DNA of 64,000 nt. It comes from Candidatus Latescibacterota bacterium (GTDB lineage: Bacteria > Latescibacterota > UBA2968 > UBA8231). The notes beneath the pieces are model-generated. The model did no database searches, was not told the origin of the DNA, and saw nothing but the letters and a program-made list of their open reading frames with translations. Shown piece by piece: positions 4,514 to 25,092 of the stretch (the stretch's first letter is position 1; every line of letters begins with the position of its first letter). The stretch is from assembly GCA_965217585.1 (NCBI GenBank), contig OZ244561.1:5056001-5120000 (forward strand). Direction: 5' to 3'. Both the position numbers and the translations under genes were made by a program.

Positions 4514-4868
4514 TGTGAGGACGAGGGATGAAACAATAGGATAAACTGATGAGTGAGGAACAGCAGCACCATTTAGCCCTGCCGCAGGGGACGCGGATAC
4601 GGGACTTTGAGTTTCACCGGGTCCTTGGCCATGGTGGATTCGGCATTACCTATCTGGGATGGAATGTCACCTTGGATATTCCGGTGGCGATCAAGGAGTA
4701 TCTGCCTACGGATTTGGCTACCCGCAAGGGTGACCAATCGGTCGTGCCGCAGTCGTCGCAGGTGGTGTCGGACTTCCAATGGGGCTTGGAACGCTTTTTG
4801 GACGAAGCCCGCACTTTGGCGCGGCTTCAACATCCCAACATCGTCCGCGTCCATCAATACTTTGAAGC

Positions 4869-5386: not shown

Positions 5387-5957
5387 TCGGTTACGTCGAT
5401 TGTGACGCCGGGGTATGCACCGATAGAGCAGTATTCGAGTCGGGGGCGTCAGGGGGCTTGGACGGACATTTATGCGTTGGGTGGGGTGTGTTATCGGGCG
5501 TTGACCGGGGAGGTGCCCGACGATGCGACGGATAGGATGCGAGATGACCCGCTGATCCCGGTATCGCAACGGTGTGCGGGTCAAGCGAGTCGAGGGTTTC
5601 TTTTAGCGATAGATGTGGCGTTGTCGGTGGATGAGGGGGATCGTCCTCAGAGTGTTGGGGCTTGGCGGGCGGTGCTAGCGGCGGAGGTGGCGGAAGCGCA
5701 GGAACAGGCGGCGGATACGGCGAAAGCCCAGAAGGATGAGGTGAGTGACGCGACAATCGTGGGGCATGTGGAGCAGGACGCGCCGCCATCGGAGCCGCAG
5801 AAGAAGCCCTTGTTCAAGCGGCTTGCCGTAGTCTTGGGCGTGGTTGCTCTCTTGGTTGGGGGCAAAATGTATGTTGATCATGCCGAACAGGTAGCGTTGG
5901 AGAAGCAGCGTCAAGAACAAGCCGTAGAAAAAGCAAGACTAGCCGCCGAGCAGGCCG

Positions 5958-6226
5958 AGCAGCAGCGTCGGGAACAGGCGGCGTTAGAGCAGCAGCGTCA
6001 GGAGCAGGCAGCCTTAGAGCAGCAGCGTCGGGAACAGGCAGCCTTAGAGCAGCAGCGTCAGGAACAGGCGGCGTTGGAGCAGCAGCGTCGGGAACAGGCG
6101 GCGTTAGAGCAGCAGCGTCAGGAGCAGGCAGCGTTGGAGAAACAACGTCAGGAACAGGCGGCGTTAGAGCAGCAGCGTCAGGAGCAGGCAGCGTTGGAGA
6201 AACAACGTCAGGAACAGGCGGCATTA
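5958..6226 (+). repeat. 30-bp tandem repeats encoding (Q/K)QR(R/Q)EQAALE coiled coil
   Basis: About 9 units of cagcgtc(a/g)gga(a/g)caggc.gc.tt(a/g)gag. Confidence 0.9.
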
Positions 6227-7158
6227 GAGGCTGTCTGAAAACCCTTGCTGTAGCCCGTATTTGAATCGGCGTACTCATCGGGCCATATTCAGGTTTCGCT
6301 ACAAAATCTGAACAGAAAGGCTCGTATGATGAGTACGCCTAGTGGCCAATATGCCACCGATGTAACCGATGCGCAATGGCGGCGGATCGAACCGTTGCTG
6401 CCGGCTTCGACTTGGCAACCGAACGGTCCGGGTCGGCCGCCGCGGGATCAACGCCAGATGGTCAACGGCCTTTTGTATTTGACCAAGACCGGGTGTCCTT
6501 GGGCGCTGCTGCCTTCTTGCTTTGGGCCGTGGAAAACGGTGTATGATTACTTTCGTCGCTGGAGTCTACAAGGGGTCTGGCCACAGGTATTGGATCGACT
6601 CACCCAGCGAGAACGCCGCCTTAACGGACGGGCCCCTCAGCCGTCGGCTGGTTGTGTCGATAGTCAGACGATCAAGACGGCAACCCACGGTAAAACAACC
6701 GGTTATGACGCCGGCAAAAAGATCCAAGGACGTAAACGTCATCTGTTGGTCGACACCTCGGGCTTGCTTAGAGAGGTGGTGGTCACCGCCGCCGATGTAG
6801 ACGATCGCGACGGCTTGAAGCAGGTGTTGACCCGCTATAGTACTCCCGACGTACCCCGGTTACGCAAACTGTGGGTCGATGGCGGCTATCGAGGCGATCC
6901 GATCCGAACGTGGGTGGCCAACCTAAAAAAGACGCACAAAATAGACTTGGAAGTCGTCGCCAAACAAGGCGGCGGATTTACCGTAGTCAAACGTCGTTGG
7001 GTCGTCGAGCGCACGTTTGCGTGGTTGATGAATTTTCGCCGCCATGCCCGAGATTATGAGGTGTTGACCCGCCATAGCGAGGCCTTGATTCAGATTGCCA
7101 TGATCCACTTGCTACTCAAACGGATCAAATAGAAAAAATGGAGTTTTCAGACAGCCTC
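6227..7158 (+). mobile_element. IS5-family insertion sequence (IS1031-like), 932 bp
   Basis: 16-bp inverted repeats GAGGCTGTCTGAAAAC / GTTTTCAGACAGCCTC; TTA target duplication at 6224-6226 and 7159-7161. Confidence 0.95.
6326..7132 (+). CDS. IS5-family transposase
   Basis: YATDVTDAQW, W..LP..FGPWKTVY, VDSQT, GRKRHLLVDT, WVDGGY, RWVVERTFAW. Confidence 0.95.
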   Translation: MMSTPSGQYATDVTDAQWRRIEPLLPASTWQPNGPGRPPRDQRQMVNGLLYLTKTGCPWALLPSCFGPWKTVYDYFRRWSLQGVWPQVLDRLTQRERRLNGRAPQPSAGCVDSQTIKTATHGKTTGYDAGKKIQGRKRHLLVDTSGLLREVVVTAADVDDRDGLKQVLTRYSTPDVPRLRKLWVDGGYRGDPIRTWVANLKKTHKIDLEVVAKQGGGFTVVKRRWVVERTFAWLMNFRRHARDYEVLTRHSEALIQIAMIHLLLKRIK

Positions 7159-7719
7159 TTAGAAAAGCAACGTCAGGAGGAACAGGCAGTACTAAAAGAG
7201 GCAAGGGCGTCGTACAGTCTGCACAAGGCGGCGAGGAACAATGCTTCTGAGACGGTCGAGGTGTTGCTCAATGGGGGAGCCGATGCCAACGCCAAAGACA
7301 ACAGTGGCAATACGCCGCTGCACGGGGCGGCGTGGAACAATGCTGCTAAGGCGGCCTTGGTGTTGCTCAATGGGGGAGCCGATGTCCACGCCAAAACCAA
7401 CGCTGGCTTTACGCCGCTGCACGTGGCGGCGGCGGAGGATGCTTCTGCGATGGCGGAGGTGTTGCTCAAACAGGGAGCCGATGTCCACGCCAAAACCAAC
7501 GCTGGCTTTACGCCGCTGCACGTGGCGGCGGCGGAGGATGCTTCTGCGATGGCGGAGGTGTTGCTCAAACAGGGAGCCGATGTCCATGCCAAAGACAGAT
7601 TTGGCCATATGCCGCTGCACTATGCGGCGCGGAATAATGCTTCTGCGACGACCAAGGTCTTGCGTCGTTACGGCGGTCGAAAGTGAAACAAGCTGATTTT
7701 TGAAATAATCGGAGATGCT

Positions 7720-9210
7720 ATGAGCGAAGCGCAACATCCTCTTCACGCCTTACCCCGAGGACATCGGCTGCAAGAATACGAACTGGTGCGCGTGCTAGGC
7801 TTTGGCGGCTTCGGCATGACTTATCTGGGCTTTGACCACAACCTCGACAAAGCCGTCGCCATCAAAGAATACTTGCCCTCCGACATCGCCACCCGCACTG
7901 CCGACCACAGCGTCGCCCCACAAGCCAGCGACTTTCGCGGCGATTTCCAGTGGGGTCTGGAGCGTTTCCTAGACGAAGCACGCACCTTAGCTCGTTTCGA
8001 CCATCGCCACATCATTAAAGTGTATCGTTTCTTTGAGGCACATGGTACGGCGTATATCGTGATGGAGTATGCCGAGGGCGAGACCTTATCGGCGTATTTC
8101 GAACGCAAGGGGACACTGGAAGAAGCCGAACTCAAGGGGATACTGTATCCGCTTCTGGATGGTTTAGAGGTGGTGCATAAAGCGGACTTTCTGCATCGGG
8201 ACATCAAGCCGGGCAACATTGTCCTGCGCGCAAAGGATGGATCTCCGGTGTTGCTGGATTTTGGTGCGGCGCGTCAGGCGATAGGTGCGAAGAGTCGCTC
8301 AGTTACGTCGATAGTAACGCCGGGGTATGCTCCGATCGAGCAGTATTCGAGTCGGGGGCGTCAGGGGCCTTGGACGGACATTTATGCGTTGGGTGGGGTG
8401 TGTTATCGGGCATTGACGGGTCAGGTGCCCGACGATGCGACGGATAGGGTGCGGCAGGACCCGCTGATTCCGGTGGCGAAGCGGTGTGCGGGTCGGGTGA
8501 GTGGTGCGTTTTTGTCGGCGGTTGATTCGGCATTGTCGGTGGATGAGGGGGATCGTCCGCAGAGCATTGCGGCGTGGAGGGCGGTGTTGGAGGTTGGTTC
8601 GGCCTCGGCGCAAGAGCGTCGCCAAGAGGAAACGCCGAGGCATAGGGAGCAGGTCGTGCAGAGGTCGCCTTTGCCGGAGCAAGTTGGCTTGGCGGAGGAG
8701 CGAGAAAAATTTGTCGCGGAAGTGGGGCGCGAGCCGTCCCCGGGCGCGGTGGGCGATGAGGGGAGGACCGACCTACATCATGCCGCAGCCATGAACCTGC
8801 CCGCACTAACTGCATACCTGTTGAACAATGGTGCGGATGTCAACGCCAAAAGCAAATATGGCTGGACGCCGCTGCACCGGGCGGCGTGGGAGGATGCTAC
8901 TGCGACGGCCGAGGAGTTGCTCAAGGGAGGAGCTTACATCCACGCCAAAGACAAAAGTGGCTGGACGCCGCTAGAAAGGGCGGTATATAGAAAAGCTCAT
9001 AAGACGGCCGAGGTATTGCGCCGCTACGGTGCCCGCAACAATAAGTCGGGTGGTAAGGGAAATAGGGAAAGTGGTCAGGCGCAGCACGCGAAGCTCGGCC
9101 GCCTCTCTGACGGTGCCAATAAGTCGAGGGGCGAGGAGAATATGGGTTGTATTACGAAGAGTCTTGTGGGTATGGGGGTCCTAGTTTTGATCGGCCTTCT
9201 TAGCTGTTGA
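7720..9210 (+). CDS. Ser/Thr protein kinase with C-terminal ankyrin repeats
   Basis: Complete Hanks kinase motifs; about 3 ankyrin repeats (GWTPLH); hydrophobic C-terminal tail. Confidence 0.9.
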   Translation: MSEAQHPLHALPRGHRLQEYELVRVLGFGGFGMTYLGFDHNLDKAVAIKEYLPSDIATRTADHSVAPQASDFRGDFQWGLERFLDEARTLARFDHRHIIKVYRFFEAHGTAYIVMEYAEGETLSAYFERKGTLEEAELKGILYPLLDGLEVVHKADFLHRDIKPGNIVLRAKDGSPVLLDFGAARQAIGAKSRSVTSIVTPGYAPIEQYSSRGRQGPWTDIYALGGVCYRALTGQVPDDATDRVRQDPLIPVAKRCAGRVSGAFLSAVDSALSVDEGDRPQSIAAWRAVLEVGSASAQERRQEETPRHREQVVQRSPLPEQVGLAEEREKFVAEVGREPSPGAVGDEGRTDLHHAAAMNLPALTAYLLNNGADVNAKSKYGWTPLHRAAWEDATATAEELLKGGAYIHAKDKSGWTPLERAVYRKAHKTAEVLRRYGARNNKSGGKGNRESGQAQHAKLGRLSDGANKSRGEENMGCITKSLVGMGVLVLIGLLSC

Positions 9211-9239
9211 CGGCTAGTTTGAACGTACACGGAGAGGTT

Positions 9240-10845
9240 ATGAGCAAACAATACCTATCTTTCATCGTGCATTTCGCAGTGGCTTGGCTCTTTTGCACGA
9301 GCCCTGTCTTGGCGCAAATAGATGTCGATGTTGTTGCTGAAAGCATCGTGCGGGTTCGCGCTTATGACGATCACAAAGTCGTGGTTGAAGGGAGCGGGTT
9401 TGTCGTCAATGAAAAGGGATATGTGCTGACGAATGCCCATCTCCTAGAGAAGGCAGAGGGATTGACCGTATTGTCCCTGAAGACCGGGGCCGAGGTTGTG
9501 GCGCAGCGGGCGTTTGCCAGCCGCGACATGAACTTGGCCCTGTTGCACGTACAGGGCTTGAACTTGCTGCCCCTCAGCTTATCCGAGCGGGGCCGATGTA
9601 GGCCGAGTCGTGCAAACGCTGCGGTTCGGCGCTACGGGAGCTGTTCAGCTTTCTCACGGGACGATTGGCACATACCAAGATATCCTCGGCAAGAAGACAA
9701 GCCGTCCTATAGCACACCTGCTACAACACAATGCCTTGATAAATGCCCAAGCCTTCGGCATGCCCTTGTTCAACGAATGCGGGGATGTCGTCGCCATCAA
9801 TATGCCAGATCCGGGCAGCGGCTCGTGGCCGTTTCGGAAAGCGAAACCCAAAGGGACTATTTTTGCCTTGCGCAGTGGCGACATAATAGCTGCGCTCGAA
9901 GACCAAGAAATCGCACATACAGTGGTTGAAGCAGAATGCCTGAGTGCCGTTGAGCGGGCTGAACGCGATAGAAAAGCGGCCGCTGACAGCCTCAAGGTAG
10001 CCAAGGCGCAGGCCGACTCGGCAGGCAAAGCCGCAAAAAAGGCCAAGGCACAGGCCGACTCGGCAAGCGAAGCCGCAAAAAAGGCCAAGGCCAAAGAGAA
10101 GGTCACTCGGCGGGCGGCAGAACGGGCGAAAGCGCGAGCCGATTCCGCAGAGAAAGCGGTGGCCGACAGCCTGAAGATGGCTAAGGCTCGGGCTGATTCC
10201 GCGAGTAAGGCGGCGGCTGACAGCCTCAAAGCGGCCAAGGCCAAAGCCGACAGCCTGAAGATGGCGCAGGCACGGGCGGATTCCGTGAGTAAGTCGGTGG
10301 CCGACAGCCTCAAAGCGGCAGAAGAAAAGGCCGCGCAGCGATTGCAGTGGGGCATTGCTGCGGGGGCGGGACTGGTACTGCTCGCACTTCTCGGTTGGTG
10401 GCTTTCCTCACGGAGGAAAAAGGAGCAATTACAAAGCGCCGAGTCCCGCTTGAGCGAAGCCGAACAAACGGCTGAAGCAGCACGCCAAGCAGCGGAGAAC
10501 GCACCGCAACCCGCGCCGTTCAGGTGTCTATTGGAAGGCCAAGACAGTACGGGTCGGCCATTCGCCTTGACCATATCGGCCTTGGCATTGAGCGAGCGGG
10601 CCGGTGTAACGCTCGGAAGGAGCCCGGCCAACGCCGAATTTATCATTGACCACGAAGAAGTCTCCCGCGAACACGTCCGGCTTACGTATGTTGACGGCCA
10701 ACTCTACGCAGAGGACTTGAATGCCCTGAATGGCACAAAGGTGAACGGACGCCTGCTCAACCCCCGCGAACAGGTGCTGTTGCAAAACAATGATCGGCTT
10801 GAGATAGGGCCAGTCGTTTTTGCCGTGCGTTTGGTTCAGGAGTGA
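9240..10845 (+). pseudogene. Signal peptide-trypsin-like (catalytically degenerate)-coiled coil-TM-FHA protein, frameshifted near 9590
   Basis: ORFs 9207-9929 and 9610-10845 join at gagcggggccgat; GSGFVVN, TNAH; NAQAFGMPL replaces GNSGGPL; FHA motifs GR, SREH, NGT. Confidence 0.75.
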
Positions 10846-10848
10846 ACA

Positions 10849-12207
10849 TTGCACGGCTTCAGACGCTGGTGTCTCGTCTTTTTTTTGCTCGCGCTTCTAC
10901 TACCGTGCCACGCTGTTGCCGCGCCAGACTTTGACGCGCTTGAGAAGAGCGTGGTACGCATTGTAACGCAGACTAGCCAAGGGCTTGGTGCTGGCACTGG
11001 ATTCGCCATAAACGACCAAGGCCATATTGCGACCAACGTCCACGTCATAGCCAATGCCAACGCGATCAAAGCCATTCCAACCAACTCCAACGTGCTGTAC
11101 GATGTGGAAGTAATCGCCACGTCCCAAGAACTCGACCTTGCAATCGCCTATATCCCAGATATAACCCTGCCGCCGATCACGCTTTCGCTCGCACCAGCCA
11201 TAAAAGGGCAGAAGGTATGGTCCATCGGCTATCCCGGTGGGGCCGACCGGAACAGACCAGCTCACGATCCGACCGTGCAAGACGGCGTCATTGGAAGGAT
11301 TTTTTGGGGTGCGTGGCACACGCAAGAACTCAGGATTATTCAGCACAATGCCCCGACCAATCCGGGCAACAGCGGCGGACCCCTACTAGATGATTGTAGC
11401 CGGGCAATCGGCGTCAATACGCAAGCGTCTCTCGTCGTCATTAGCAGTCCATCCAGCGGGGTGACGCGGGTACCCCATGCGGCGGGCATTTACTGGTCTT
11501 CGCATATAGAGGAATTGGCAAACCTGTTGGGCGACCATGGCATTGCTTTTCAATCAGAGAGCGACGATTGTGTGGCGGCTGGTGGCATGGGAGGTTCTGG
11601 CGAGGCGGAAAAGGCGCAGCACGAGGCGGAGAAAGCCCAGCGCGAAGCGGAAAAGGCTCGGCGCGAGGCCGAACAAGCGCGAGTGCAGGCAGAAGAAGCT
11701 AGCGATCAATTTTTCGTCTGGCTGTTATTGTTGGGGGGTGTGGCATTGATCGCCTTGGTCGTTGCCTTAAAGAAGCCGCGCCAGCTTGCCCAGCAGACCT
11801 TGGAGAAGCCGCGCCAGTTCGTCCAGCAGATGAGTCGGCGCGTGACCAAAAAAGACGCGGCGGCCGTTGCAAAAGGTCCAAATCACGGCATCGTGCTGGC
11901 CGGTTTTGACGGTCGCGGCAACCGCGTCTGCATCGAGTTGTCGCCAGGCCGATTTGCCGGTCAACGCTTGGGGCTTTCGCTCGGCAGGCATCCCGAGTTG
12001 GTGGATGAAGTTGTCGCGGATGAAAACGTATCCCGACGGCATCTGCGAATTGCAGCCGAGGGCGATCAATTTTATGTCGAAGATTTGAACTCCAGCAATG
12101 GGACGTTTCTGAACGAGCAGCGCCTGTCGCCCTTTAAGCCGGCGCGGTTGGACTATGGTACCAGAGTCGCGCTGGGCGATTTGGTACTCGTGGCTTCCAA
12201 GCTTTAG
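10849..12207 (+). CDS. Trypsin-like serine protease-TM-FHA domain protein
   Basis: Signal peptide; triad TNVH / DLAIA / NPGNSGGPL; TM FFVWLLLLGGVALIALVVAL; FHA motifs GR, SRRH, SNGTF. Confidence 0.9.
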   Translation: MHGFRRWCLVFFLLALLLPCHAVAAPDFDALEKSVVRIVTQTSQGLGAGTGFAINDQGHIATNVHVIANANAIKAIPTNSNVLYDVEVIATSQELDLAIAYIPDITLPPITLSLAPAIKGQKVWSIGYPGGADRNRPAHDPTVQDGVIGRIFWGAWHTQELRIIQHNAPTNPGNSGGPLLDDCSRAIGVNTQASLVVISSPSSGVTRVPHAAGIYWSSHIEELANLLGDHGIAFQSESDDCVAAGGMGGSGEAEKAQHEAEKAQREAEKARREAEQARVQAEEASDQFFVWLLLLGGVALIALVVALKKPRQLAQQTLEKPRQFVQQMSRRVTKKDAAAVAKGPNHGIVLAGFDGRGNRVCIELSPGRFAGQRLGLSLGRHPELVDEVVADENVSRRHLRIAAEGDQFYVEDLNSSNGTFLNEQRLSPFKPARLDYGTRVALGDLVLVASKL

Positions 12208-12215
12208 ATGGGGTA

Positions 12216-13217
12216 TTGGGCATGAAAAAACGCAGCCGAGAGTTCAACATCTTTAGCATGTCCGCGCTCGATCTGTTCGCCTCCGCTCTCGGTGCCTTCA
12301 TACTCATTACCATAGTGCTGCTGCCCTTTTTTCCGAATCTGGACATGTCGGGACAGGCCAAGGCCGAGTTGGAGCAGGCGCAGGCCGAATTGGAGCAGGC
12401 CAAGGCCAAGTTAGAGCAAGCCAAGGCCCAATCAGAGCAGGAGAAGGCTAAGCTGGAACGGGAGAAGGCTAAGCTGGAACAGGAGAAGGCTAAGCTGGAA
12501 CGGGCAAAGGCCCAAGCTCCGAAAGCGAAAGGTCAGCTTGAAAAACGGGTGGAGGCTTTGCAACAGGAGCTGAAACAGGAGAAAGCCAAGCTGGAACGGG
12601 CAAAGGCCCAAGCTCCGAAAACGAAAGGTCAGCTTGAAAAACGAGTGGAGGCTTTGCAACAGGAGATAGACGACACAACCGTTTTATTGGGCATTAAGAC
12701 GAAGGCGAAGAAGTTCGTGTTCGTCATAGATATGTCGGGCAGTATTTATCAGCCTGGACAGCAAGATTATCGCCAGTTCATAGTATTGTCCATACAAGAC
12801 ATGCTCGCTGCTTTTAAGTCGGAAATAGAGGTCTGTCTCATTGGTTTTCAAGGCTCGAATCTGTTGCACTATTGGCCTCGAAATAGAGGTTACTTTCAAG
12901 TAAAAAAGAATACGCAAGATCGCGTTGTGGGACAGGTAAAAGGCTGGATGAGATTGGTGGATGGCGGCACGCCCACACGCGCCGCTTTGCTGGCGGCGAT
13001 TGCACTGCACCCCGAAGAAATCATCCTGTTGAGCGATGGTGAACCCTCAGAAGATTGGCGCATGGTCGTGCAGGCTGTAACGGTTGAAAATAGGCGGAAG
13101 ATACCCATACACGCCGTAGCCGTTGGCAAATACACGACGAACCGAAAATTTATCGATTTTCTATTGCAGTTGACAGAGCGGAATAATGGGTATGTCGTAG
13201 GAGCCAAACCAGGTTGA
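12216..13217 (+). CDS. Membrane-anchored coiled-coil vWA protein with ExbD/MotB-like N-terminal helix
   Basis: Basic N-terminus then SALDLFASALGAFILI (Asp at TM start); heptad-like repeats; MIDAS DMSGS, GGTP, LLSDGEP. Confidence 0.8.
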   Translation: MGMKKRSREFNIFSMSALDLFASALGAFILITIVLLPFFPNLDMSGQAKAELEQAQAELEQAKAKLEQAKAQSEQEKAKLEREKAKLEQEKAKLERAKAQAPKAKGQLEKRVEALQQELKQEKAKLERAKAQAPKTKGQLEKRVEALQQEIDDTTVLLGIKTKAKKFVFVIDMSGSIYQPGQQDYRQFIVLSIQDMLAAFKSEIEVCLIGFQGSNLLHYWPRNRGYFQVKKNTQDRVVGQVKGWMRLVDGGTPTRAALLAAIALHPEEIILLSDGEPSEDWRMVVQAVTVENRRKIPIHAVAVGKYTTNRKFIDFLLQLTERNNGYVVGAKPG

Positions 13218-13218
13218 T

Positions 13219-13587
13219 ATGAACAAATCGAGATTTTCTGTGTACCGAATCGGTCGCGGCTCAGGCGTGGACATCCAGATTGACGATGATTCGGTCTCTC
13301 GCGTCCATGCCGAGCTAATTGCGACGCAAAGCGGCTCTTACTATCTCACCGATTGCGCCAGCAGCGGGGGTAGTTATGTTGCACGAAACGGCGAGTGGAG
13401 ACGCATCCGGCAGGAATTTATAAGCCCGACAGACGCGATTTTACTAGGTCATTATCAGACGACCGCACCCGCACTTATCGCTATGGCCGTGCAAAGGGAG
13501 CACCGTTCAGGAGAGGGCACGTCCCTGCCCGAGGGACCAGTGCGGCGCAACGTAGATACGGGTGAGATCATTGGCGAGGAGGATTGA
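13219..13587 (+). CDS. FHA domain protein
   Basis: IGR...DIQIDDDSVSRVHA...D..S.GGS. Confidence 0.85.
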   Translation: MNKSRFSVYRIGRGSGVDIQIDDDSVSRVHAELIATQSGSYYLTDCASSGGSYVARNGEWRRIRQEFISPTDAILLGHYQTTAPALIAMAVQREHRSGEGTSLPEGPVRRNVDTGEIIGEED

Positions 13588-13588
13588 C

Positions 13589-14374
13589 ATGGCAAAAGGG
13601 CAAGGGGTAGAGCTGGAACAGCGCCTAAAAGTATGCGGCGTCAGTTTGCTAGGAGGCGTCGTATCTATAGCGATTATGAGCATTATTTTCGATCATCCCG
13701 ATTCTGGGGCAGGTGCTTTCCTGCTAGATCGCCACACGGAGAATTTTCCCTATCCATTCACAATCCAAAACGTCATGTGGCTTATGTTTTGGGTCGGCTG
13801 CGGTGAACTCTGGGTGCGGTTTAATCAAGCCAAGCTGGAAATGGAGCAGATGTCGAAACGCTATCTGCCGGAGGACGATGAGGTTATGTTGCGGGCGCGG
13901 GATTTGGGTTCCTTTTATCAGAAGGTGAAACCCATGGCCGAGGAGCGCGCCTTTTATTTACAGCGTCTAATCATGCGCTGTATTCTACAATTCCAGGGGA
14001 GCCACTCAGTGAACCAAGCCAACTCGCTATTGAATTCTTCCCTCGAATTATTTCAGCACGAGCTCGAACTCAAGTACGCGATGTTGCGCTATCTCGTCTG
14101 GCTGATACCAACGCTGGGTTTTATTGGCACTGTGGTGGGTATTGCGTTTGCATTGGATTATGCGGCCAACATTGAAAACCCACAGGACCCGACCTTGCTG
14201 GCCGGGATCACGGGTCGGCTGGGCGTCGCGTTTTACACGACCTTGCTCGCGTTGATCCAGTCGGCACTGCTGGTGTTTGCGCTGCACATTGCGCAAAGCC
14301 AGGAGGAGATGGCCTTAAACCAATCCGGCCAATACTGTTTGGACAACTTAATCAACCGGCTTTACGAAAAGTAA
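13589..14374 (+). CDS. MotA/TolQ/ExbB proton-channel family protein
   Basis: IPTLGFIGTVVGI and GVAFYTTL signature helices; start MAKGQ at 13589. Confidence 0.85.
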   Translation: MAKGQGVELEQRLKVCGVSLLGGVVSIAIMSIIFDHPDSGAGAFLLDRHTENFPYPFTIQNVMWLMFWVGCGELWVRFNQAKLEMEQMSKRYLPEDDEVMLRARDLGSFYQKVKPMAEERAFYLQRLIMRCILQFQGSHSVNQANSLLNSSLELFQHELELKYAMLRYLVWLIPTLGFIGTVVGIAFALDYAANIENPQDPTLLAGITGRLGVAFYTTLLALIQSALLVFALHIAQSQEEMALNQSGQYCLDNLINRLYEK

Positions 14375-14427
14375 GTTGCGGGCGAGACGCCTGCGCGGCC
14401 GGAATAACCCAAAGATAGGAGGGCATC

Positions 14428-15081
14428 ATGCCTGTTTATCGCGGACCCGATGGCAAAATCATTGAAGAGAAAACCGATAAGCGGACAGAGGATACCAAAC
14501 CAACGGACGCGGCCAACAAGCCGTTGCCGCCGGCACCACAGGGTGGCGAGCAACCCGCCGGTGCCGGGCGTTTAGATGCGCCCACGCAGCGGATGGGCGA
14601 AAGCCGTGCGCCGGCCAATGTCGGCGAGGAGGAGCGGACGCGCTTGGTGGGTGGACGGCGGCGGCAAGAAGACGAGGAGCGCCGGCAAGAGCGCGCCGAG
14701 GAAGATCGCGGCATGGATGATCCGGTTGTGGGGTGGTTGGTAGTTGTCGAGGGGCCGGGAAAAGGGAAGGCCGTGCAACTGGGTTATGGCTCTAATTCGA
14801 TTGGACGCGGGGAGACCGATCGCATCAAGCTCGATTTTGGCGACGATCAGATTTCGCGCAATGGCCATGCCGTTGTTACGTACGATCCTCGCGGCAGGAA
14901 GTTTTATGTGCAGCACGGCGGCGGCACCAACCTGACGTATCTCGGGGATCAGCCCGTGCTCGCACCGGCTGAGTTGCCAGCGCTGAGTCACATCAGCATC
15001 GGCAATACGGTTCTCCGTTTCGTGTCCCTGTGCGGTGCCGAGTTTGATTGGCAGGATACCGAAGGAAGCGAAGCGCGATGA
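14428..15081 (+). CDS. FHA domain protein with disordered Thr-containing N-terminus
   Basis: PVVGWLVVVEGPGKG, IGR, D..ISR..HA, TNLTY. Confidence 0.85.
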   Translation: MPVYRGPDGKIIEEKTDKRTEDTKPTDAANKPLPPAPQGGEQPAGAGRLDAPTQRMGESRAPANVGEEERTRLVGGRRRQEDEERRQERAEEDRGMDDPVVGWLVVVEGPGKGKAVQLGYGSNSIGRGETDRIKLDFGDDQISRNGHAVVTYDPRGRKFYVQHGGGTNLTYLGDQPVLAPAELPALSHISIGNTVLRFVSLCGAEFDWQDTEGSEAR

Positions 15082-16235
15082 ACGAGTTAGACGGGCGCTT
15101 TGCCGCGCGGCAAATTCCCGGCAAACGGGAGTATCAAGAGGATGATTACGGCCTGCTGGATGGGCGCGACCTCGGCCTAGACGGTAGCGAGCACTCCATG
15201 TTGTTGGTCGCCGATGGCATGGGCGGCCATGTTGGCGGCGCGACGGCTAGCGGCCTTTTGAGTAAGACCTTTGTCGAGGTGTATTCGCAGGCTTCTGGGC
15301 CAATCGTCGATCGGCTCCGGGACTGCCTCGAAGCGGGTAATAAAGCCATCGCCGATGCCATTGCCGAAAATCCCGAACTCGACAGCATGGGTTCGACCTT
15401 GGTTGCGGCTGTTGTTTCAAGCGAAGGGCTGAACTGGATCAGCGTGGGCGACTCTCCGTTGTGGTTGTTTCGCGAGGGTCAATTGGAGCGTTTGAATGCA
15501 GACCACTCTATGGCTCCGGTTCTTGCGGATCTCGTGGCAACGGGGCGCATGACCGCAGAGGAAGCGGCTCGAGATCCAAGTCGGCACTCGCTGCGGTCGG
15601 CGGTCATGGGCGATGACATACATCTGATTGACGTATCGTCGCAGCCGGTGGCGGTCGAGCAGGGCAACCGGCTGCTATTGGCGAGCGATGGTTTGATGAC
15701 CCTCAGCGACCAAGAGATCGAGGCTATCCTCAAGAAAACGCAAGACGCGCCATTGGAGGATAGCGCCGCGGCCCTTATCCAAGCTGTGGAAGATGCCGAA
15801 CAGCCCCACCAAGACAATACGACTGTCTTATTGTACGCGCCGGCTGAGAGTGCGGAATTGGCTGCGGCTGCTATTGGCGAACAGGAAGCTGCTCAGGGTA
15901 AGCCGCGATTAAAACGAAAACGCCGAGGCAGACTGTTGGGGATGTTGCTATGCGTTGCTGTCTTATGGGGGGTGCTTTATTGGCTTAGGCGGGGCGAAGA
16001 TGCGGTTGTTGAGATTCCAGCGGCAACTGTTGAGACTCCAGCAACAACGGATGTTGAACCCACTGAAGGCTCTGATGTTCAAGTGCCAATGGCATCCGGC
16101 GCCGAAGAGAGCGCACCGGTTTCTCAGGAGGAGGCGACAGGGGACAGCACTCGTGCGGGGGTGGAGAAAGCCGAGTTGAACGAGCCGCCAGCAGAGAAAG
16201 AAGAGAGTGTTAGGGTCGAGGGAGGGGAAGAGTGA
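15078..16235 (+). CDS. PP2C/PPM-family Ser/Thr phosphatase with C-terminal TM and acidic tail
   Basis: REYQED, VADGMGGH, MGST, VGDS, DHS, LASDGL, DNTT. Confidence 0.92.
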   Translation: MNELDGRFAARQIPGKREYQEDDYGLLDGRDLGLDGSEHSMLLVADGMGGHVGGATASGLLSKTFVEVYSQASGPIVDRLRDCLEAGNKAIADAIAENPELDSMGSTLVAAVVSSEGLNWISVGDSPLWLFREGQLERLNADHSMAPVLADLVATGRMTAEEAARDPSRHSLRSAVMGDDIHLIDVSSQPVAVEQGNRLLLASDGLMTLSDQEIEAILKKTQDAPLEDSAAALIQAVEDAEQPHQDNTTVLLYAPAESAELAAAAIGEQEAAQGKPRLKRKRRGRLLGMLLCVAVLWGVLYWLRRGEDAVVEIPAATVETPATTDVEPTEGSDVQVPMASGAEESAPVSQEEATGDSTRAGVEKAELNEPPAEKEESVRVEGGEE

Positions 16236-16276: not shown

Positions 16277-18400
16277 ATGAGTGGGGAACAACAGCATCGC
16301 TTGGCGTTGCCGCAGGGGACGCGCATACGGGATTTTGAGTTTCACCGCGTCCTTGGCTACGGCGGGTTTGGCATTACCTATCTGGGATGGAACATTGCCT
16401 TGGATATTCCCGTGGCGATCAAGGAGTATCTGCCCGCAGACTTGGCTACCCGCGAACAAGACCTGTCCGTTGTGCCGCAGTCGTCACAGACAGCGGCCGA
16501 TTTCCAATGGGGCTTGGAACGCTTCTTGGACGAAGTTCGAACCCTTGCACGCTTTCAGCACCGCAACATCGTCCGCGTCCATCATTTTTTTGAAGCGCAC
16601 AGTACTGCCTATATCACAATGGACTATGTGGAGGGGGAGGACTTGTCGGCGTATCTGACGCGCAAGGGGACGCTGAGCGAAGACGAGCTTAAAGCGATTC
16701 TGTATCCACTGTTGAGTGCTTTAGAAGTGATACATCAGGCTGATTTCCTACATCGAGACATCAAGCCGGGCAACATTGTCTTGCGCGATTCGGATGGTGC
16801 GCCGGTGTTGCTGGACTTTGGCTCGGCACGTCAGGCGATAGGAGCGAAGAGTCGTTCAGTTACGTCGATTGTGACGCCGGGGTATGCGCCGATCGAGCAG
16901 TATTCGAGTCGGGGTCGTCAGGGGCCTTGGACGGACCTTTATGCGTTGGGAGGTGTGTGTTATCGGGCGTTGACGGGTCAGGTGCCGGAGGATGCGACGG
17001 ATAGGGTGCGTCTCGATCCGTTGGTTCCGGTATCACAGCGGTGTGCGGGTCGGGTGAGTGGTGCGTTTTTGTCGGCGATAGATGTGGCGTTGTCGGTGGA
17101 TGAGGGGGATCGTCCGCAGAGTGTGGGGGCTTGGCGGGAGGCGTTGGAAGTGGATGTGGTGGAAGCAGAGGGGGATGAGTTGGCCGAAGTGCCGAGGCGT
17201 GGGACGGCGGAAATACAGGAGCTCGAGACGGCGGATGTCTCGGACGTGAGCAAGGGGGGACGCGACGCTTTACCATCGGATACCAAGAAAAAGGAAGCCG
17301 TCGAGCATAAACCAGCTAGCGCAAAGTGGGTGTTCGTAATCATGGGCGGGGTCATTTTTTTCGCGATACTCGCCGGTTTTTACGACGTAAAGAACGAGCG
17401 AGCGGTGTTGGAGAAGCAGCGTCGGGAACAGGCGGTGTTGGAGAAGCAGCGTCGGGAACAAGCGGTGTTGGAGAAGCAACGTCGGGAGCAGGCAGTGTTG
17501 GAGAAGCAACGTCGGGAACAGGCAGCGTTGGAGAAGCAACGTCGGGAACAGGCGGCGTTGGAGAAACAGCGTCGGGAACAGGCGGCGTTGGAGAAACAGC
17601 GTCGGGAACAAGCGGTGTTGGAGAAGCAGCGTCGGGAACAGGCGGCGTTGGAGAAACAGCGTCGGGAACAGGCGGCGTTAGAGAAGCAACGTCAGGAGGA
17701 ACAGGCAGTACTAAAAAAAGCAGGGGTGTACAGTCTGCACGATGCGGCGTCTAAGAATGCCTATGAGGCAGCCGAGGTGTTGCTCAAGCAGGGGGCTAAA
17801 GTCAATACCAAAGCCGACAATGGCTGGACGCCGCTACACGATGCGGCGCGGAAAAATGCTGCTATGACGGCCGAGGTGTTGCTCAAGGGGGGTGCCAACG
17901 TCCACGCCAAAGACAAATATGGCTGGACGCCGTTGCACAGGGCGGCGGAGAAGGATGCTTCTGCGACGGCGGAGATGTTGCTCAAGCAGGGAGCCGACGC
18001 CAATGCCAGAAATAACTATGGCGATACGCCGCTACACATAGCGGCGCGGAATAATGCTTCTAGGACGGTCGAGGTGTTACTCAAGCAGGGAGCCGACATC
18101 CACGCCAAAGACAAATATGGCGCTACGCCGCTGCACGTAGCGGCGGAGAAGGATGCTTTTGGGACGGCTGAGGTGTTGCTTAAGGGGGGAGCCGACGCTA
18201 ACGCCAAAAACAAATATGGCTGGACGCCGTTGCACTGGGCGGCGCGGAATAATGCTTCTTCGACGGCCGAGGTGTTACTCAAGGGGAGGGCCGACGCTAA
18301 CGCCAAAACCAACAAGGGCGGGACGCCGCTGCACGTAGCGGTGGGATGGAATGCTTCTGCGACGGCGGAGGTCTTGCGCCGTTACGGCGGTCGAAAGTGA
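16277..18400 (+). CDS. Receptor-like Ser/Thr kinase-TM-coiled coil-ankyrin repeat protein
   Basis: Kinase motifs; TM WVFVIMGGVIFFAILAGF; 10 EQA(V/A)LEKQRR-type units; about 7 ankyrin repeats. Confidence 0.92.
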   Translation: MSGEQQHRLALPQGTRIRDFEFHRVLGYGGFGITYLGWNIALDIPVAIKEYLPADLATREQDLSVVPQSSQTAADFQWGLERFLDEVRTLARFQHRNIVRVHHFFEAHSTAYITMDYVEGEDLSAYLTRKGTLSEDELKAILYPLLSALEVIHQADFLHRDIKPGNIVLRDSDGAPVLLDFGSARQAIGAKSRSVTSIVTPGYAPIEQYSSRGRQGPWTDLYALGGVCYRALTGQVPEDATDRVRLDPLVPVSQRCAGRVSGAFLSAIDVALSVDEGDRPQSVGAWREALEVDVVEAEGDELAEVPRRGTAEIQELETADVSDVSKGGRDALPSDTKKKEAVEHKPASAKWVFVIMGGVIFFAILAGFYDVKNERAVLEKQRREQAVLEKQRREQAVLEKQRREQAVLEKQRREQAALEKQRREQAALEKQRREQAALEKQRREQAVLEKQRREQAALEKQRREQAALEKQRQEEQAVLKKAGVYSLHDAASKNAYEAAEVLLKQGAKVNTKADNGWTPLHDAARKNAAMTAEVLLKGGANVHAKDKYGWTPLHRAAEKDASATAEMLLKQGADANARNNYGDTPLHIAARNNASRTVEVLLKQGADIHAKDKYGATPLHVAAEKDAFGTAEVLLKGGADANAKNKYGWTPLHWAARNNASSTAEVLLKGRADANAKTNKGGTPLHVAVGWNASATAEVLRRYGGRK
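17396..17700 (+). repeat. 30-bp tandem repeats (EQA(V/A)LEKQRR) x10
   Basis: ggaacaggcggcgttggagaa(a/g)cagcgtcg periodicity. Confidence 0.9.
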
Positions 18401-18433: not shown

Positions 18434-19987
18434 ATGAGCGAAGAGCACCATCGCTTGGCGTTGCCGCAGGGGACGCGCATACGAGACTTTGAGTTTCACC
18501 GCGTCCTTGGCTACGGCGGATTTGGTATTACCTATCTGGGATGGAACATTGCCTTGGATATTCCCGTGGCGATCAAGGAGTATCTGCCTGCGGACTTGGC
18601 TACCCGCGAACAAGACCTGTCCGTCGTGCCGCAAACGACTCAGGCGGCGTCGGATTTCCAATGGGGCTTGGAACGCTTCTTGGACGAAGCTCGCGTCCTA
18701 GCGCGCTTTCAGCACCCCAACATCGTCCGCGTCCATCACTTCTTTGAGGCGCACAGCACGGCCTATATCGTGATGGACTATGTGGAGGGGGAAGATTTAT
18801 CGGTGTATCTGACGCGCAAAGGGACGCTGAGCGAAGACGAGCTTAAGGCCGTTTTGTATCCGTTGCTCAATGGCTTAGAAGTGGTGCATCGGGCTGATTT
18901 CCTGCATCGGGACATCAAGCCGGGCAATATCGTCCTGCGCGCTGAGGATGGTTCGCCGGTGTTGCTGGACTTTGGCGCGGCGCGTCAGGCGATAGGGGCA
19001 AAGAGTCGTTCGGTTACGTCGATCGTGACGCCGGGGTATGCGCCGATCGAGCAGTATTCGAGTCGTGGGCGTCAAGGGGCGTGGACGGACATTTATGCGT
19101 TGGGGGGCGTGTGCTATCGAGCGTTGACCGGGCAGGTGCCCGACGATGCGACGGATAGGGTGCGGAATGACCCGCTGATTCCGGTGGTGAAGCGGTGTGC
19201 GGGTCAAGCGAGTCGAGGAATTCTTTCGGCGATCGATTTAGCGTTGTCGGTAGATGAGGGGGATCGTCCACAGAGTATTGGGGCTTGGCGGGAGACGTTG
19301 GGGGCGGATGTGGCCTCGCAGCAAGAGTGTCGCCAAGAAGAGGAAAGGCAGTCAAGGGCCTCGTCGCCGAGTCGTCCGCCGAGATTGTCCACCTCGCAGC
19401 ACGAACACCGCCAAGAAGAAAAGAAAAAAGAGGGCATAGGCGGCGAGACCGCTGGTTCGCCTCTCACTACTCAGTCAGCGGCCAAAGTTAAAGATGCGGA
19501 GCACCTGAACACATGGTTTAAGCTCCACTGTATTTGCCTTGCTGCTATCATACCGTTGGGCGTCTCTGCTGCCGGGCTTGCCGTGTTCGGTTTACTTGCT
19601 GTCGTGTCCGGTTTACTTGCTGTGGTATTCGGTTTACGTATCCTGCATAAATTGTGGTCACTCATCCCCAATCACAAAGCAAGGACGACACCAGGCAAAG
19701 CAGTTGGATTTCTCTTTATACCGTTTTTTAATCTCTACTGGAACTTCGTTGCAATTTACGGTCTCGCCAAAGCTCTCAATACCGAAACCGGTCGAAGATC
19801 AGTCAGCGAGGTGGCTAGTTTTATCTATTGCTGCTCATTTATGGTCGCCGCGATGGCCTCCCTAGTGAATACAATGGAGGACCGGACTTTGATAATCGCT
19901 ATTGGATATATTGTTGGGGGTGTGCTCTGGTTCATCATTCTAAAGCAAATGAAGAACGCCGGCAGACTCATTTTGCAGACGGCATAA
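18434..19987 (+). CDS. Ser/Thr kinase with C-terminal multi-pass membrane domain (DUF4328/DUF4234-like)
   Basis: Kinase nearly identical to paralogs; C-terminus TTPGKAVGFLFIPFFNLYW with about 4-5 TM helices. Confidence 0.85.
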   Translation: MSEEHHRLALPQGTRIRDFEFHRVLGYGGFGITYLGWNIALDIPVAIKEYLPADLATREQDLSVVPQTTQAASDFQWGLERFLDEARVLARFQHPNIVRVHHFFEAHSTAYIVMDYVEGEDLSVYLTRKGTLSEDELKAVLYPLLNGLEVVHRADFLHRDIKPGNIVLRAEDGSPVLLDFGAARQAIGAKSRSVTSIVTPGYAPIEQYSSRGRQGAWTDIYALGGVCYRALTGQVPDDATDRVRNDPLIPVVKRCAGQASRGILSAIDLALSVDEGDRPQSIGAWRETLGADVASQQECRQEEERQSRASSPSRPPRLSTSQHEHRQEEKKKEGIGGETAGSPLTTQSAAKVKDAEHLNTWFKLHCICLAAIIPLGVSAAGLAVFGLLAVVSGLLAVVFGLRILHKLWSLIPNHKARTTPGKAVGFLFIPFFNLYWNFVAIYGLAKALNTETGRRSVSEVASFIYCCSFMVAAMASLVNTMEDRTLIIAIGYIVGGVLWFIILKQMKNAGRLILQTA

Positions 19988-25090: not shown

Positions 25091-25092
25091 GT

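Follow-up and report, generated by a model that had tools for sequence, protein, structure and literature searches.

The locus studied here lies in the window, a stretch of 64,000 nucleotides from a 7.32 Mb, 94.6% complete genome of a Candidatus Latescibacterota bacterium. It comprises seven genes, G1–G7, all on the plus strand at positions 9240..16235, with domains assigned by Pfam (Table 1). The earlier note had described seven tightly packed, co-oriented genes in this order and with these domains, and both open reading frames (ORFs) and Pfam matches bear this out; the gaps, given there as ranging from overlapping to ~55 bp, run from an overlap to 53 bp. The four flanking Hanks kinases of that account are all present, but not all intact, the first of them being broken. 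Similarly, the domains and the dead protease assigned to G1 hold, but its single open frame does not, as a 2-bp deletion divides the gene into two ORFs.

Table 1. Genes and other features of the locus (window coordinates; scores in bits).
Feature	Position	Strand	Matches	Description
Hanks kinase 1	4549..6238	+	Pkinase 103.2 + 85.1, on two pieces (Pfam)	
IS4/IS5-family DDE transposase gene	6326..7132	+	DDE_Tnp_1 105, DUF4096 103.8 (Pfam)	
Ankyrin-repeat remnant	7138..7686	+	Ank_2 152.8 (Pfam)	Severed C-terminal part of kinase 1
Hanks kinase 2	7720..9210	+	Pkinase 130.4, Ank_2 75.8 (Pfam)	C-terminal hydrophobic anchor
G1 (T1)	9240..10845	+	Trypsin_2 38.6, FHA 58.6 (Pfam)	
G2 (T2)	10849..12207	+	Trypsin_2 90.7, FHA 62.7 (Pfam)	
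G3 (B subunit)	12222..13217	+	VWA 25.8 (Pfam); marginal, cut-off 23.8	Coiled coil
G4 (F4)	13219..13587	+	FHA 51.3 (Pfam)	Small soluble FHA protein
G5 (A subunit)	13589..14374	+	MotA_ExbB 38.9 (Pfam PF01618, cut-off 22.9)	
G6 (F6)	14428..15081	+	FHA 30.0 (Pfam)	
G7	15048..16235	+	PP2C_2 43.8 (Pfam)	PP2C phosphatase, then TM helix and acidic tail
Hanks kinase 3	16277..18400	+	Pkinase 127.6, Ank 159.7	TM, decapeptide coil repeats
Hanks kinase 4	18434..19987	+	Pkinase 130	Multi-pass membrane domain

The frame of kinase 1 is shifted by an exact 259-bp tandem duplication (4869–5127 = 5128–5386), and the end of the gene is formed by 30-nt repeats encoding a decapeptide coil. The transposase gene, across which contig depth is several-fold higher than around it, separates kinase 1 from its ankyrin part; the coil motif EKQRQE starts the ankyrin remnant and also ends ORF 5126–6238. 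The membrane domain of kinase 4 weakly matches DUF4328 (23.6 bits, Pfam cut-off 27.2), and G7 scores 136.9 bits against the NCBIfam model of Stp1, below the cut-off of 230. In G1, ORFs 9207–9929 and 9610–10845 result from loss of 'AA' after base 9588, relative to three orthologues. The same two bases are missing from the contigs of two runs (0 at depth 13 and 0 at depth 29) and are kept by a relative in a third run (38.7 of depth 40.7). The copy of this genome is thus partly decayed, with T1 frameshifted and one kinase broken, and, as T1 is broken, the window's copy may not work as described below.

Both trypsin-type proteins start with a signal peptide and end with a TM segment followed by an FHA domain; between them, G1 has a dead trypsin-like domain and a helical stalk, and G2, an active-type trypsin-like domain and a short coil. 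Each is thus predicted to have a periplasmic head, one TM helix, and a cytoplasmic FHA domain. The columns of the catalytic triad read H-D-S in G2 (H65, D96, S175) and H-N-F in G1, so that the label 'pseudo-trypsin' given earlier to the first gene is apt. The same division is seen among aligned orthologues: the triad H-D-S is found in 38 out of 39 aligned members of the T2 class, and Ser occupies the nucleophile column in none of the 58 members of the T1 class (two of them having gaps there), 33 of which have H-N-F. From these alignments, T1 appears to be a protease conserved in a dead form, with T2 as its live counterpart, which is new here.

The A subunit G5 (261 aa) belongs to the MotA/TolQ/ExbB family and has four membrane helices and an invariant C-terminal GQYCLDNLINRLYE. 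A Foldseek search with its AF2 model (pLDDT 82.8) places TolQ chains first (8vlw_B, TM 0.57/0.66), followed by ExbB, PomA, MotA, and ZorA, the best E-value being 2e-3, with no match at E ≤ 0.001; a sequence search against solved structures gave no match at E ≤ 0.01. Residues T181 (in GTVVGI) and T217/T218 are invariant in 16 out of 16 sequences, and these motifs align, weakly (E 0.33), with the motifs IGTLVG and LTT of helices TM3 and TM4 of PomA; we take these residues to be the Thr of pore-lining helices with a functional role. The A-subunit alignment shows no cytoplasmic Thr that is conserved, and hence any FHA docking site on the motor is a guess. Family and fold suggest that G5 is a pentamer-type A subunit.

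The candidate partner of G5 is encoded by G3, which lies upstream of G5 at a distance of 372 bp, a space taken up by G4 alone. G3 consists of an ExbD/TolR-like transpore helix, a coiled-coil stalk of ~115 residues, and a vWA head carrying the MIDAS motif DMSGS...T...D; its N-terminus also yields weak ZorB/MotB matches. In 27 out of 27 sequences from different groups, residues M1, E7, F11, D17, L18, A20, S21, G24, and F26 of the helix are invariant, and outside the near-invariant first ~40 residues identity drops to 25–31%; the helix is common to 949 proteins. No cluster protein matches the ExbD or MotB models of Pfam. As a within-genome control, a PF02472 (ExbD) gene lies within ~1 kb of each of the eight strong PF01618 genes, and none was found in the genome near this A subunit (two copies, plus one further weak PF01618 match). 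The earlier note stated that MotA-like proteins pair with a partner carrying a TM Asp; such a partner exists here, and it is the vWA protein, with its invariant Asp17. Given the invariant Asp helix and the lack of an exbD gene, the vWA protein probably serves as the inner subunit in a motor of 5:2 type. It would stand in for ExbD/TolR, with the Asp as the predicted proton carrier, and the stalk would extend into the periplasm and end in a putative head for metal-dependent binding.

B subunits differ in their heads. In the related loci, the periplasmic heads are vWA, a second vWA type, and, in about a third of loci, a TerD-like domain instead of vWA, which is new here. The latter has no Pfam match; the head of the B protein from locus L047 is modeled by AF2 with pLDDT > 90 and aligns (VIA-align) to the TerD protein SCO6318 (Z 10.3, rmsd 3.5, 122 aligned) and Klebsiella TerD (Z 9.3, 123 aligned), the only chains at Z ≥ 8, with Foldseek E-values from 5e-4 to 7e-4. 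These models point to a TerD-like fold of the alternative head, a beta-sandwich that in TerD binds calcium.

Two further FHA proteins accompany the motor. The FHA domain of F4 is devoid of the usual Asn in the loop that binds pThr, a residue serving this binding. F6 has a conserved N-terminal MPVYRGPDGKIIEEKT motif, a disordered linker with two Thr, in the contexts 'PT' and 'KTR', conserved in an 80-sequence alignment, and a conserved C-terminal CGxxFDW; its score with the NCBIfam FhaB/FipA model is 52.1 bits, below the cut-off of 125.

In order to assess conservation, we considered 63 related loci with at least 8 kb on both sides. Within 8 kb of the MotA-like gene, F6 and a Hanks kinase occur in 63 out of 63 loci, the Asp-helix/vWA (B) gene in 60, PP2C in 59, trypsin-FHA in 57, and F4 in 47, always immediately upstream of the motor gene when present. 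The view that these genes form one multi-gene system is thus supported by a component set conserved in other taxa. The earlier note had named the lack of a conserved gene order in other taxa as the outcome that would speak against it; read as order or content, this outcome does not occur, as the content is kept in at least seven phylum-level groups, among which the order is permuted. This favors selection acting on content over the common descent of a single arrangement, and the neighborhood, to judge by these comparisons, is more than chance. Of 111 kinases, 85 have at least one TM segment past the kinase domain according to a crude hydropathy scan, with 1–879 residues beyond it, and one ORF of 1029 aa adjoining locus L007 fuses trypsin, kinase, and ankyrin. 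The motor is co-inherited with membrane Hanks kinases that differ greatly in their outer parts, with a membrane PP2C, and with FHA proteins.

At least two trypsin-type genes are found in 37 out of 63 loci, and hence the phospho-dependent assembly of an extracytoplasmic protease, proposed earlier, is not a universal output. Among the 20 single-trypsin loci, the dead form is found in ten; the live protease is tallied as missing in 26 out of 63 loci, with the other ten single-gene loci lying outside the triad alignment, so that proteolysis is excluded, on this tally, as the core output.

The distribution of the system in the genus is patchy, also a new observation: 16 out of 30 other genomes of the genus (35 out of 168 in the phylum) have it, in one to three copies per genome, and 14 lack it, including single-contig genomes that are 93–94% complete. 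Within the genus, the locus occupies the same chromosomal place, flanked by the same metabolic genes. A subunits are 74–78% identical across records titled as different phyla, and the full set is retained in streamlined marine lineages, such as the SAR86-titled records L040, L060, and L061.

Some parts of this arrangement have close counterparts. The 5:2 motors made of a TolQ-like protein and a TPH-vWA protein have been predicted in section 8 of [quoted passage not shown] (Mol Biol Evol 2025, PMC12204202), where the reference family comes from Idiomarina. Hence, of the claim that the system is undescribed, the motor pair has to be given up, while the main text of that paper contains 'kinase' and 'phosphatase' 0 times and 'fha' once, within FhaC. 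As in the motors outlined there, a tolQ-like gene lies near a gene for a TM-tethered vWA protein with no tolR or exbD, the helix is TolR/ExbD-like with a conserved Asp, and the A subunit has the Thr motifs (PMC12204202). This independent prediction also speaks for the pairing of G5 with G3. The TPH-vWA genes mostly form heterologous pairs according to this text, whereas a single B gene is found in the window and most related loci, with true pairs in L036 and L037; the TerD-like heads and the protease pair are without counterpart in its main text (PMC12204202).

The fold of the A subunit, the N-terminal Asp helix of B, and the presumed proton-driven work in the periplasm are shared with ExbB–ExbD–TonB and TolQ–TolR–TolA. 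Unlike these systems, the cluster has neither the periplasmic domain of ExbD nor a third subunit such as TonB or TolA, the head is fused directly, through a coiled coil, to the inner subunit, and there is a dedicated kinase/PP2C/FHA link. In line with the earlier note, which saw no TonB/TolA genes here, this is not a Ton/Tol system: exbD, tolA, and tonB genes are absent from the cluster according to Pfam; the NCBIfam model tolA_full gives 15.4 bits, on the coiled coil only, and no Ton/Tol match in the cluster is above cut-off. Zorya ZorAB is likewise a non-flagellar 5:2-type motor outside motility. However, this A subunit, being 261 aa long, is devoid of the long cytoplasmic tail of ZorA, and the B head is vWA or TerD-like rather than a peptidoglycan-binding domain. 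The PADLOC models match residues 166–257 of the A subunit only (ZorA2, 23.7 bits) and the N-terminal helix of B only (ZorB3, E 9e-4); the exclusion of Zorya stands, as none of ZorC, D, E, F, or G is matched.

The control part resembles several phospho-signaling pathways. As in the PpkA/PppA/Fha1 (TagQRST) pathway of T6SS, a membrane Hanks kinase, PP2C, and FHA proteins would control an envelope machine; unlike there, no T6SS core is present, and the machine under control would be a proton motor. The periplasmic domain of PpkA is vWA-like. A T6SS accessory role had been doubted in the earlier note, and indeed PF05943 (TssC/VipB) has zero matches in the 94.6%-complete genome, and TIGR03354 (TagH) scores 40 and 27.8 bits, the cut-off being 120. 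The TerY-P triad combines a soluble vWA protein (TerY) with PP2C and a Ser/Thr kinase, mostly in the company of ter genes; the triad and the Ter stress response were reportedly treated by Anantharaman, Iyer and Aravind in 2012. The adjacency of vWA, PP2C, and Ser/Thr kinase genes is common to both, as is a TerD-like domain in the alternative head, but the vWA or TerD-like domain of this system shares a polypeptide with a transpore helix and is presumably periplasmic, and no TerC, TerB, or TerZ genes were found in the window. MamE and MamO are the live/dead trypsin-like protease pair of magnetosomes. Similarly to them, an active HtrA/trypsin-type protease stands beside a conserved dead paralogue, both membrane-bound; in contrast, PDZ and magnetochrome domains are absent, each paralogue has a cytoplasmic FHA domain, and the NCBIfam MamE/MamO models give only 34 and 21 bits, far below their cut-offs of 800. 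Finally, the Esr threat-sensing pathway of Actinomycetales (preprint PMC13622651) also features Thr phosphorylation of an FHA protein, within its disordered linker, driven by a kinase/phosphatase pair together with a vWA protein and a surface-facing sensor. However, energy is used there by a MoxR AAA+ ATPase, in a Gram-positive envelope, as against a proton motor in diderms here, and there is no sequence kinship beyond shared domains.

Taking all this into account, we lean slightly towards reading the cluster as an envelope machine, accessory and horizontally mobile, with an ion-driven 5:2 motor like those of MotA, ExbB, and TolQ at its core. In such a machine, the kinases would read signals from the envelope or outside and phosphorylate Thr residues, F6 being the prime candidate target, and PP2C would reset this phospho-switch. 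Phospho-Thr may bring F4, T1, and T2, through their FHA domains, to the cytoplasmic side of the motor, which would switch the proton-driven movement of the B stalk and head on or off and set the tethered protease heads beside the periplasmic ligand of the B head; the output might be mechanical work on, or cleavage of, an envelope target. Considerably more doubtful is the broader proposal that this would be the first ion-driven 5:2 motor under Ser/Thr phosphorylation control, a motorized extracytoplasmic relative of Ter/TerY-P acting in envelope surveillance or defense. Were it true, a rotating inner subunit with interchangeable metal-dependent heads, vWA or TerD-like, would probe the envelope; a breach by a phage, predator, or host factor would lead to kinase-written phospho-Thr clutching the motor, with the live/dead protease pair brought onto the ligand of the B head, making this a new kind of proton-powered envelope surveillance and defense machine.

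It is rather unlikely, in our estimate, that the signal runs in reverse, that is, that the motor is a force-probing sensor, which pulls on an envelope ligand bound by the B head, and the load is reported to a cytoplasmic kinase/PP2C/FHA output. FHA-based threat-sensing pathways serve as the model for such a reading, and a sensor with changing ligands would suit the variable B heads and kinase ectodomains as compared with the conserved motor and F6, but Pfam finds neither a transcription factor nor any other evident domain for cytoplasmic output in the cluster, and the kinases' own outer domains suggest that it is the kinases that receive the input. We consider unlikely a dedicated anti-phage or anti-invader defense with Zorya-like logic, in which an attack sensed by the kinases unplugs the channel, so that it drains the proton-motive force (abortive infection), or unleashes the protease. 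The patchy presence in variable copy number, the identity of A subunits between records titled as different phyla, and IS elements in and beside the locus are all in line with it, and the patchy presence would also suit the host contact that the earlier note proposed beside defense. Yet the fixed chromosomal place in the genus speaks against it, as does the A subunit, unusually conserved for a conflict gene; moreover, there is no copy in 50,697 phage records and only two weak or variant matches in 72,556 plasmids, and the window's sole defense genes, those of a Type I R-M system, are ~37 kb off. As for PADLOC, the seven proteins match no system beyond generic domains (PADLOC-DB 2.0: trypsin, RT-Protease; PP2C, PDC-M21C), and the resemblance of the kinases to its models (PD-T4-6/mad6) is also only generic. 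Seven out of 116 flanking ORFs (from six out of 16 loci) match PADLOC at E ≤ 1e-15, a weak signal, and 109 have no match, these being raw counts without a baseline rate.

Housekeeping envelope maintenance of the Tol–Pal kind, such as outer-membrane tethering or division, merely tuned by phosphorylation, is very unlikely. While TolQ is the nearest fold of the A subunit, the N-terminus of B is TolR/ExbD-like, and streamlined marine lineages retain the full set, the system is missing from near-complete genomes of the genus, the genome already has eight canonical ExbB/TolQ–ExbD sets, and according to Pfam the cluster is devoid of TolA, TolB, and Pal genes. It is hardly credible that the phospho-signaling cassette and the motor are two independent modules that merely happen to be adjacent. 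Motor-free kinase/PP2C/FHA/vWA cassettes do exist, as in Deinococcus (DRA0331–0334), and the TerY-P triad is a further example; but the co-occurrence in 59–63 out of 63 loci withstands the rearrangement of order across phyla, and an A/B pair without a nearby kinase or FHA gene is seen in none of these loci. Moreover, a second, minimal copy elsewhere in the same genome retains exactly B, A, F6, PP2C, and a kinase.

The seven co-oriented, tightly packed genes of the cluster (see the table) carry the domains that the earlier note had named from the sequence, each of which is borne out by Pfam, and four Hanks kinases lie on their flanks. Two details of that description are to be amended: the first gene, G1, has the Trypsin_2 and FHA domains, but not in a single frame, as it is split into two ORFs in different frames, and one of the four kinases, while present, is broken (4549-6238). 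The cluster itself is real and conserved; its function is so far read from the sequence.

Features of the window, its genome and related loci
Feature	Position	Strand	Basis or content
Seven-gene cluster	9240-16235	+	ORFs, Pfam; tightly packed, spacing from overlap to 53 bp
G1, dead trypsin-FHA (T1)		+	Pfam Trypsin_2, FHA
G2, live trypsin-FHA (T2)		+	Pfam Trypsin_2, FHA
G3, Asp-helix and vWA protein (B)		+	Coiled coil; Pfam VWA, marginal (25.8 bits, cut-off 23.8)
G4, small FHA protein (F4)		+	Pfam FHA
G5, motor subunit (A)		+	Pfam MotA_ExbB
G6, FHA protein (F6)		+	Pfam FHA
G7, phosphatase		+	Pfam PP2C
Hanks kinases	4549-6238; 7720-9210; 16277-18400; 18434-19987
AAA-ATPase_like/PDDEXK_9 gene	2720-4291		PF09820 and PDDEXK_9
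Exact tandem duplication	4869-5386		259 bp, 100% identity
30-nt tandem repeats	5897-6256		9 copies
30-nt tandem repeats	17300-17760
DDE transposase gene	6326-7132		IS4/IS5-type
DDE transposase gene	26314-27534		DDE_Tnp_1_assoc-type
Metatranscriptome contigs	13397-13910; 14191-14552; 15779-16002		One library, 90-95% alike
Low-GC stretch	24001-26400		GC 0.45, around it ~0.57-0.66
Run of large genes	28581-50994	-	Pfam, ORFs
Type I restriction-modification system	53037-61783	-	hsdR, hsdS, hsdM
Third MotA_ExbB match in the window's genome	C1:6316738-6316959		Weak, 37.2 bits
Variant cluster (L084), R. leguminosarum BT01	pRlBT01d 151363-176055		Two PP2C, F4-like and F6-like FHA, A
Trypsin-kinase ORF	L007:15671-18757		1029 aa

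Relatives of G5 number thousands, the best 120 being 57-99% identical. A search of one-genome-per-species contigs with the C-terminal motif of A, GQYCLDNL, and a second pattern yielded 554 stretches, 463 of which encode a relative. From these 463, 80 loci were retrieved, assigned by record titles to Latescibacterota (34), Gammaproteobacteria including SAR86, Pseudohongiella, Parabeggiatoa and Halioxenophilus (25), Acidobacteriota (9), Alphaproteobacteria and Binatia (three each), Gemmatimonadota and Rhodothermales (two each), "Proteobacteria" and Acidimicrobiaceae (one each); most are MAGs, and some labels are possibly binning errors. The window's proteins were compared with all ORFs of the 80 loci by phmmer, and partners no more than 8 kb from the motor gene were counted in the 63 loci whose flanks reach 8 kb or more in both directions. 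An F6-type FHA protein and a kinase are present in all 63, a B/vWA-type protein in 60, PP2C in 59, a trypsin-FHA protein in 57 and an F4-type FHA protein in 47, with F6, PP2C, B, kinase and trypsin found jointly in 53. The order is T1-T2-B-F4-A-F6-PP2C-kinase in Latescibacterota, F4-A-F6-PP2C-T1-T2-B-kinase in many Gammaproteobacteria and Binatia, and B-A-F6-PP2C-kinase in a second, minimal copy in the window's genome. As judged from these comparisons, the gene content is conserved, not one inherited arrangement.

Flagella, Ton uptake, Tol-Pal, gliding and Zorya defence all run on ion-driven 5:2 motors. The AF2 model of G5 is confident (pLDDT 82.8), and its structural matches are led by TolQ, followed by ExbB, PomA/MotA and ZorA, with modest E-values (2e-3 at best). 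The A profile finds nothing at E <= 0.01 among solved structures, the PomA motif alignment being weak (E 0.33); A matches no NCBIfam model, and no protein of the cluster reaches a model cut-off there. In G3 orthologues of all groups, the first ~40 residues are almost invariant (MKxRSREINIFSMSALDLFASALGAF...), with Asp17 kept in 27 out of 27 and the remainder of the protein down to 25-31% identity. The transpore helix, which we take to resemble the TolR/ExbD N-terminus, is common to 949 proteins, and the N-terminus also has weak ZorB/MotB matches. The window's genome contains 11 PF01618 genes, all eight strong ones having an ExbD (PF02472) gene within ~1 kb; near either A copy, no PF02472 gene was found. 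Since the Asp helix is ExbD-like and both A copies come without an ExbD gene, G3 is likely the inner (B) subunit. The third MotA_ExbB match of the genome has no ExbD-family gene nearby and no protein of the system within 10 kb. A fused FHA-MotA protein (P0018, 384 aa, one contig) was rejected as a probable truncation or error, its FHA match spanning 29 of 67 profile positions.

In the predicted layout of G3, a short, positively charged N-terminus lies in the cytoplasm and is followed by the transpore helix, by a coiled-coil stalk of ~115 residues and by a periplasmic vWA head with an intact MIDAS motif. Complex prediction for a partial assembly, namely, three A and residues 1-60 of B, gave 0.02 against a mark of 0.32, a score that counts neither for nor against the pairing. 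Stalk lengths of B correlate with those of T1 at Spearman 0.30 (n = 26, p = 0.14) and with those of T2 at 0.48 (n = 19, p = 0.04), values that ignore relatedness, come from a motif rule that missed Latescibacterota-type heads and carry no weight in the reading given below.

By motif, the head is vWA in 42 of the 62 loci with a full-length B, another beta-rich type in 19, and both in one. The second type has no Pfam match; the B protein of locus L047, folded as an example, has a head with pLDDT above 90, and comparing that head with 48,161 chains gives just two matches at Z >= 8, both of them TerD proteins (Z 10.3 and 9.3; Foldseek E 5e-4 to 7e-4). Judging by motif and predicted fold, the B head is exchangeable between vWA and TerD-like forms. 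Both vWA (TerY) and TerD are parts of the Ter stress system, on which the earlier note's mention of the TerY-P triad bears.

From the loci, 97 trypsin-type ORFs with lengths of 330-700 aa were assigned to a G1 or a G2 class, according to which of the two proteins gave the better phmmer match. The H-D-S triad is present in 38 out of 39 ORFs of the G2 class, and Ser occupies the nucleophile column in none of the 58 of the G1 class (two being gaps), 33 of which have H-N-F as in the window; on the alignment, this is a conserved live/dead pair. Two or more trypsin genes occur in 37 of the 63 loci. Among the 20 single-trypsin loci, the gene entered the triad alignment in ten, and all ten have the dead form; it thus seems that the dead protease belongs to the core and that the live one is an optional extra.

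F6 is conserved in an N-terminal motif, in two threonines within a disordered linker and in a C-terminal motif. On these features it could plausibly be phosphorylated by a kinase in the manner of GarA/OdhI or EsrG; it matches the NCBIfam FhaB/FipA and OdhI models below cut-off. According to a crude hydropathy scan, 85 of the 111 kinases are membrane proteins, with very different outer parts, e.g., ankyrin repeats, a multi-pass domain, and PDZ/PAN in the Rhizobium variant. Directly downstream of a related cluster (L007), one ORF combines a periplasmic-type Trypsin_2 domain, a kinase and ankyrin repeats. In the window, the 30-nt tandem repeats encode a decapeptide coil, EKQRxEQAxL, situated between the TM segment and the ankyrin repeats of the kinases and apparently variable in copy number between paralogues.

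PADLOC matches the cluster to no system beyond generic domains. It differs from Zorya in that A has no tail, B has no peptidoglycan-binding domain and ZorC-G are missing, from Ton/Tol in lacking both the ExbD domain and TonB/TolA, and from T6SS accessory modules in that no TssC is found in the whole 94.6%-complete genome. The earlier statements that T6SS core, Zorya effector and TonB/TolA genes are missing are supported, the first through TssC and the latter two for the cluster. The earlier note's description of the system as new stands in part. The pairing of a TolQ-like protein with a transpore-helix-vWA protein in a motor has been predicted earlier (Mol Biol Evol, 2025, section 8; PMC12204202), so the motor core is not new; neither "kinase" nor "phosphatase" occurs in the main text of that article, and "fha" turns up there once, within the word FhaC. 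In the literature searched, which did not extend to the figures and supplements of PMC12204202, no paper was found that connects a motor of the MotA/TolQ/ExbB type with a module of kinase, PP2C and FHA proteins, nor any published case of a 5:2 motor tied to Ser/Thr phosphorylation. Within the reach of these searches, nothing in print describes the phospho-switch, the pairing of a dead with a live protease or the exchangeable vWA/TerD-like heads.

The system occurs in 35 of 168 genomes of the phylum (the window's genome included) and in 16 of 30 other genomes of the same genus, several single-contig genomes being without it; wherever genus members carry it, the flanking genes are the same as in the window. 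Although the family is widespread, with its 463 loci, this distribution marks it as accessory and patchy within the genus, and it therefore probably has a conditional role, for instance in defence, contact or stress. Among 72,556 plasmids, the sole carrier is a Rhizobium leguminosarum chromid with a variant cluster, in which B has the same Asp helix as G3 and a head without a Pfam match, no trypsin domain is found, and a 500-aa protein ending in FHA, two kinase-PDZ(-PAN) proteins and a 1610-aa protein without a Pfam match are also encoded. Together with Halioxenophilus sp. WMMB6, whose locus L078 holds the full set, this R. leguminosarum strain provides cultured carriers, which makes the question directly testable.

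Sequence comparison shows the parts list and its co-inheritance, an ExbD-like Asp helix on the protein that bears the head, the division into dead and live proteases, and the conserved threonines; signal peptides, TM segments and charge suggest the membrane topology. We lean, by somewhat better than even chances, towards a motor gated by phosphorylation, with a head that acts on a target in the envelope: A and B would assemble as A5B2, the FHA domains would dock at the motor in a phospho-threonine-dependent manner, and a periplasmic ligand would be acted on mechanically or proteolytically. The same parts could run as a sensor, from outside to inside, which we hold possible at a rather low probability.

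Defence through a proton leak or a protease would agree with the patchy distribution, with the presence of several copies in a genome and with the high identity that records from different phyla share. However, A is strongly conserved, the chromosomal site is stable, no copy is present in 50,697 phage records, and there is no clear defence-island signal, as PADLOC on the flanks of 16 loci matches seven of 116 ORFs (a count without a baseline rate), in six loci, mostly "PDC" candidates, one of the seven, a PP2C, probably belonging to the system itself; we thus consider defence unlikely. A housekeeping, Tol-like role appears quite improbable, and mere adjacency of two modules most improbable of all. 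Each newly understood member of the 5:2 motors adds a new use of the proton gradient, and in this family the inner subunit of the motor would bear an adhesion-type head, the motor genes being co-inherited with those of a dedicated switch made up of kinase, phosphatase and FHA proteins.

In the window's copy, G1 lacks two bases, AA, after position 9588, compared with three orthologues (L001, L049, L002). Two sequencing runs bear the window out, with AA carried by 0 of depth 13 in one and 0 of depth 29 in the other, and hence the break is probably real in this strain, although one of these runs may be the source sample; in a third run, a relative 90-95% alike carries AA (38.7 of 40.7). In the kinase at 4549-6238, the tandem duplication shifts the frame, the rows shown of the contig table fitting both a real event and an assembly artefact, and an IS5-type transposase gene sits between this kinase and its ankyrin repeats. 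As T1 is frameshifted and one kinase is broken by duplication and IS, the cluster may be partly decayed here. Intact in the window are T2, B, F4, A, F6, PP2C and three kinases, more than in the genome's minimal second copy. Metatranscriptome contigs, which come from a relative, may include DNA carry-over and lack a silent control, give only a hint of transcription of the cluster.

In three runs, contig depth over the IS4/IS5-type transposase gene exceeds that of the neighbouring sequence several-fold, hence the gene is multi-copy. The AAA-ATPase_like gene lies just upstream of the kinases, and in the same place in L049. The low-GC stretch contains three ORFs without a Pfam match and adjoins the second transposase gene. 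The long run of large genes, with proteins of 967, 934 and 727 aa among those without a Pfam match and DUF6785/DUF6784, PPIase, FlgD_ig, F5/8 type C and TPR domains in others, could represent a still uncharacterised set of genes for the envelope or the cell surface. Between hsdR and hsdS lie DUF1828/DUF1829, DUF6978 and further small ORFs.
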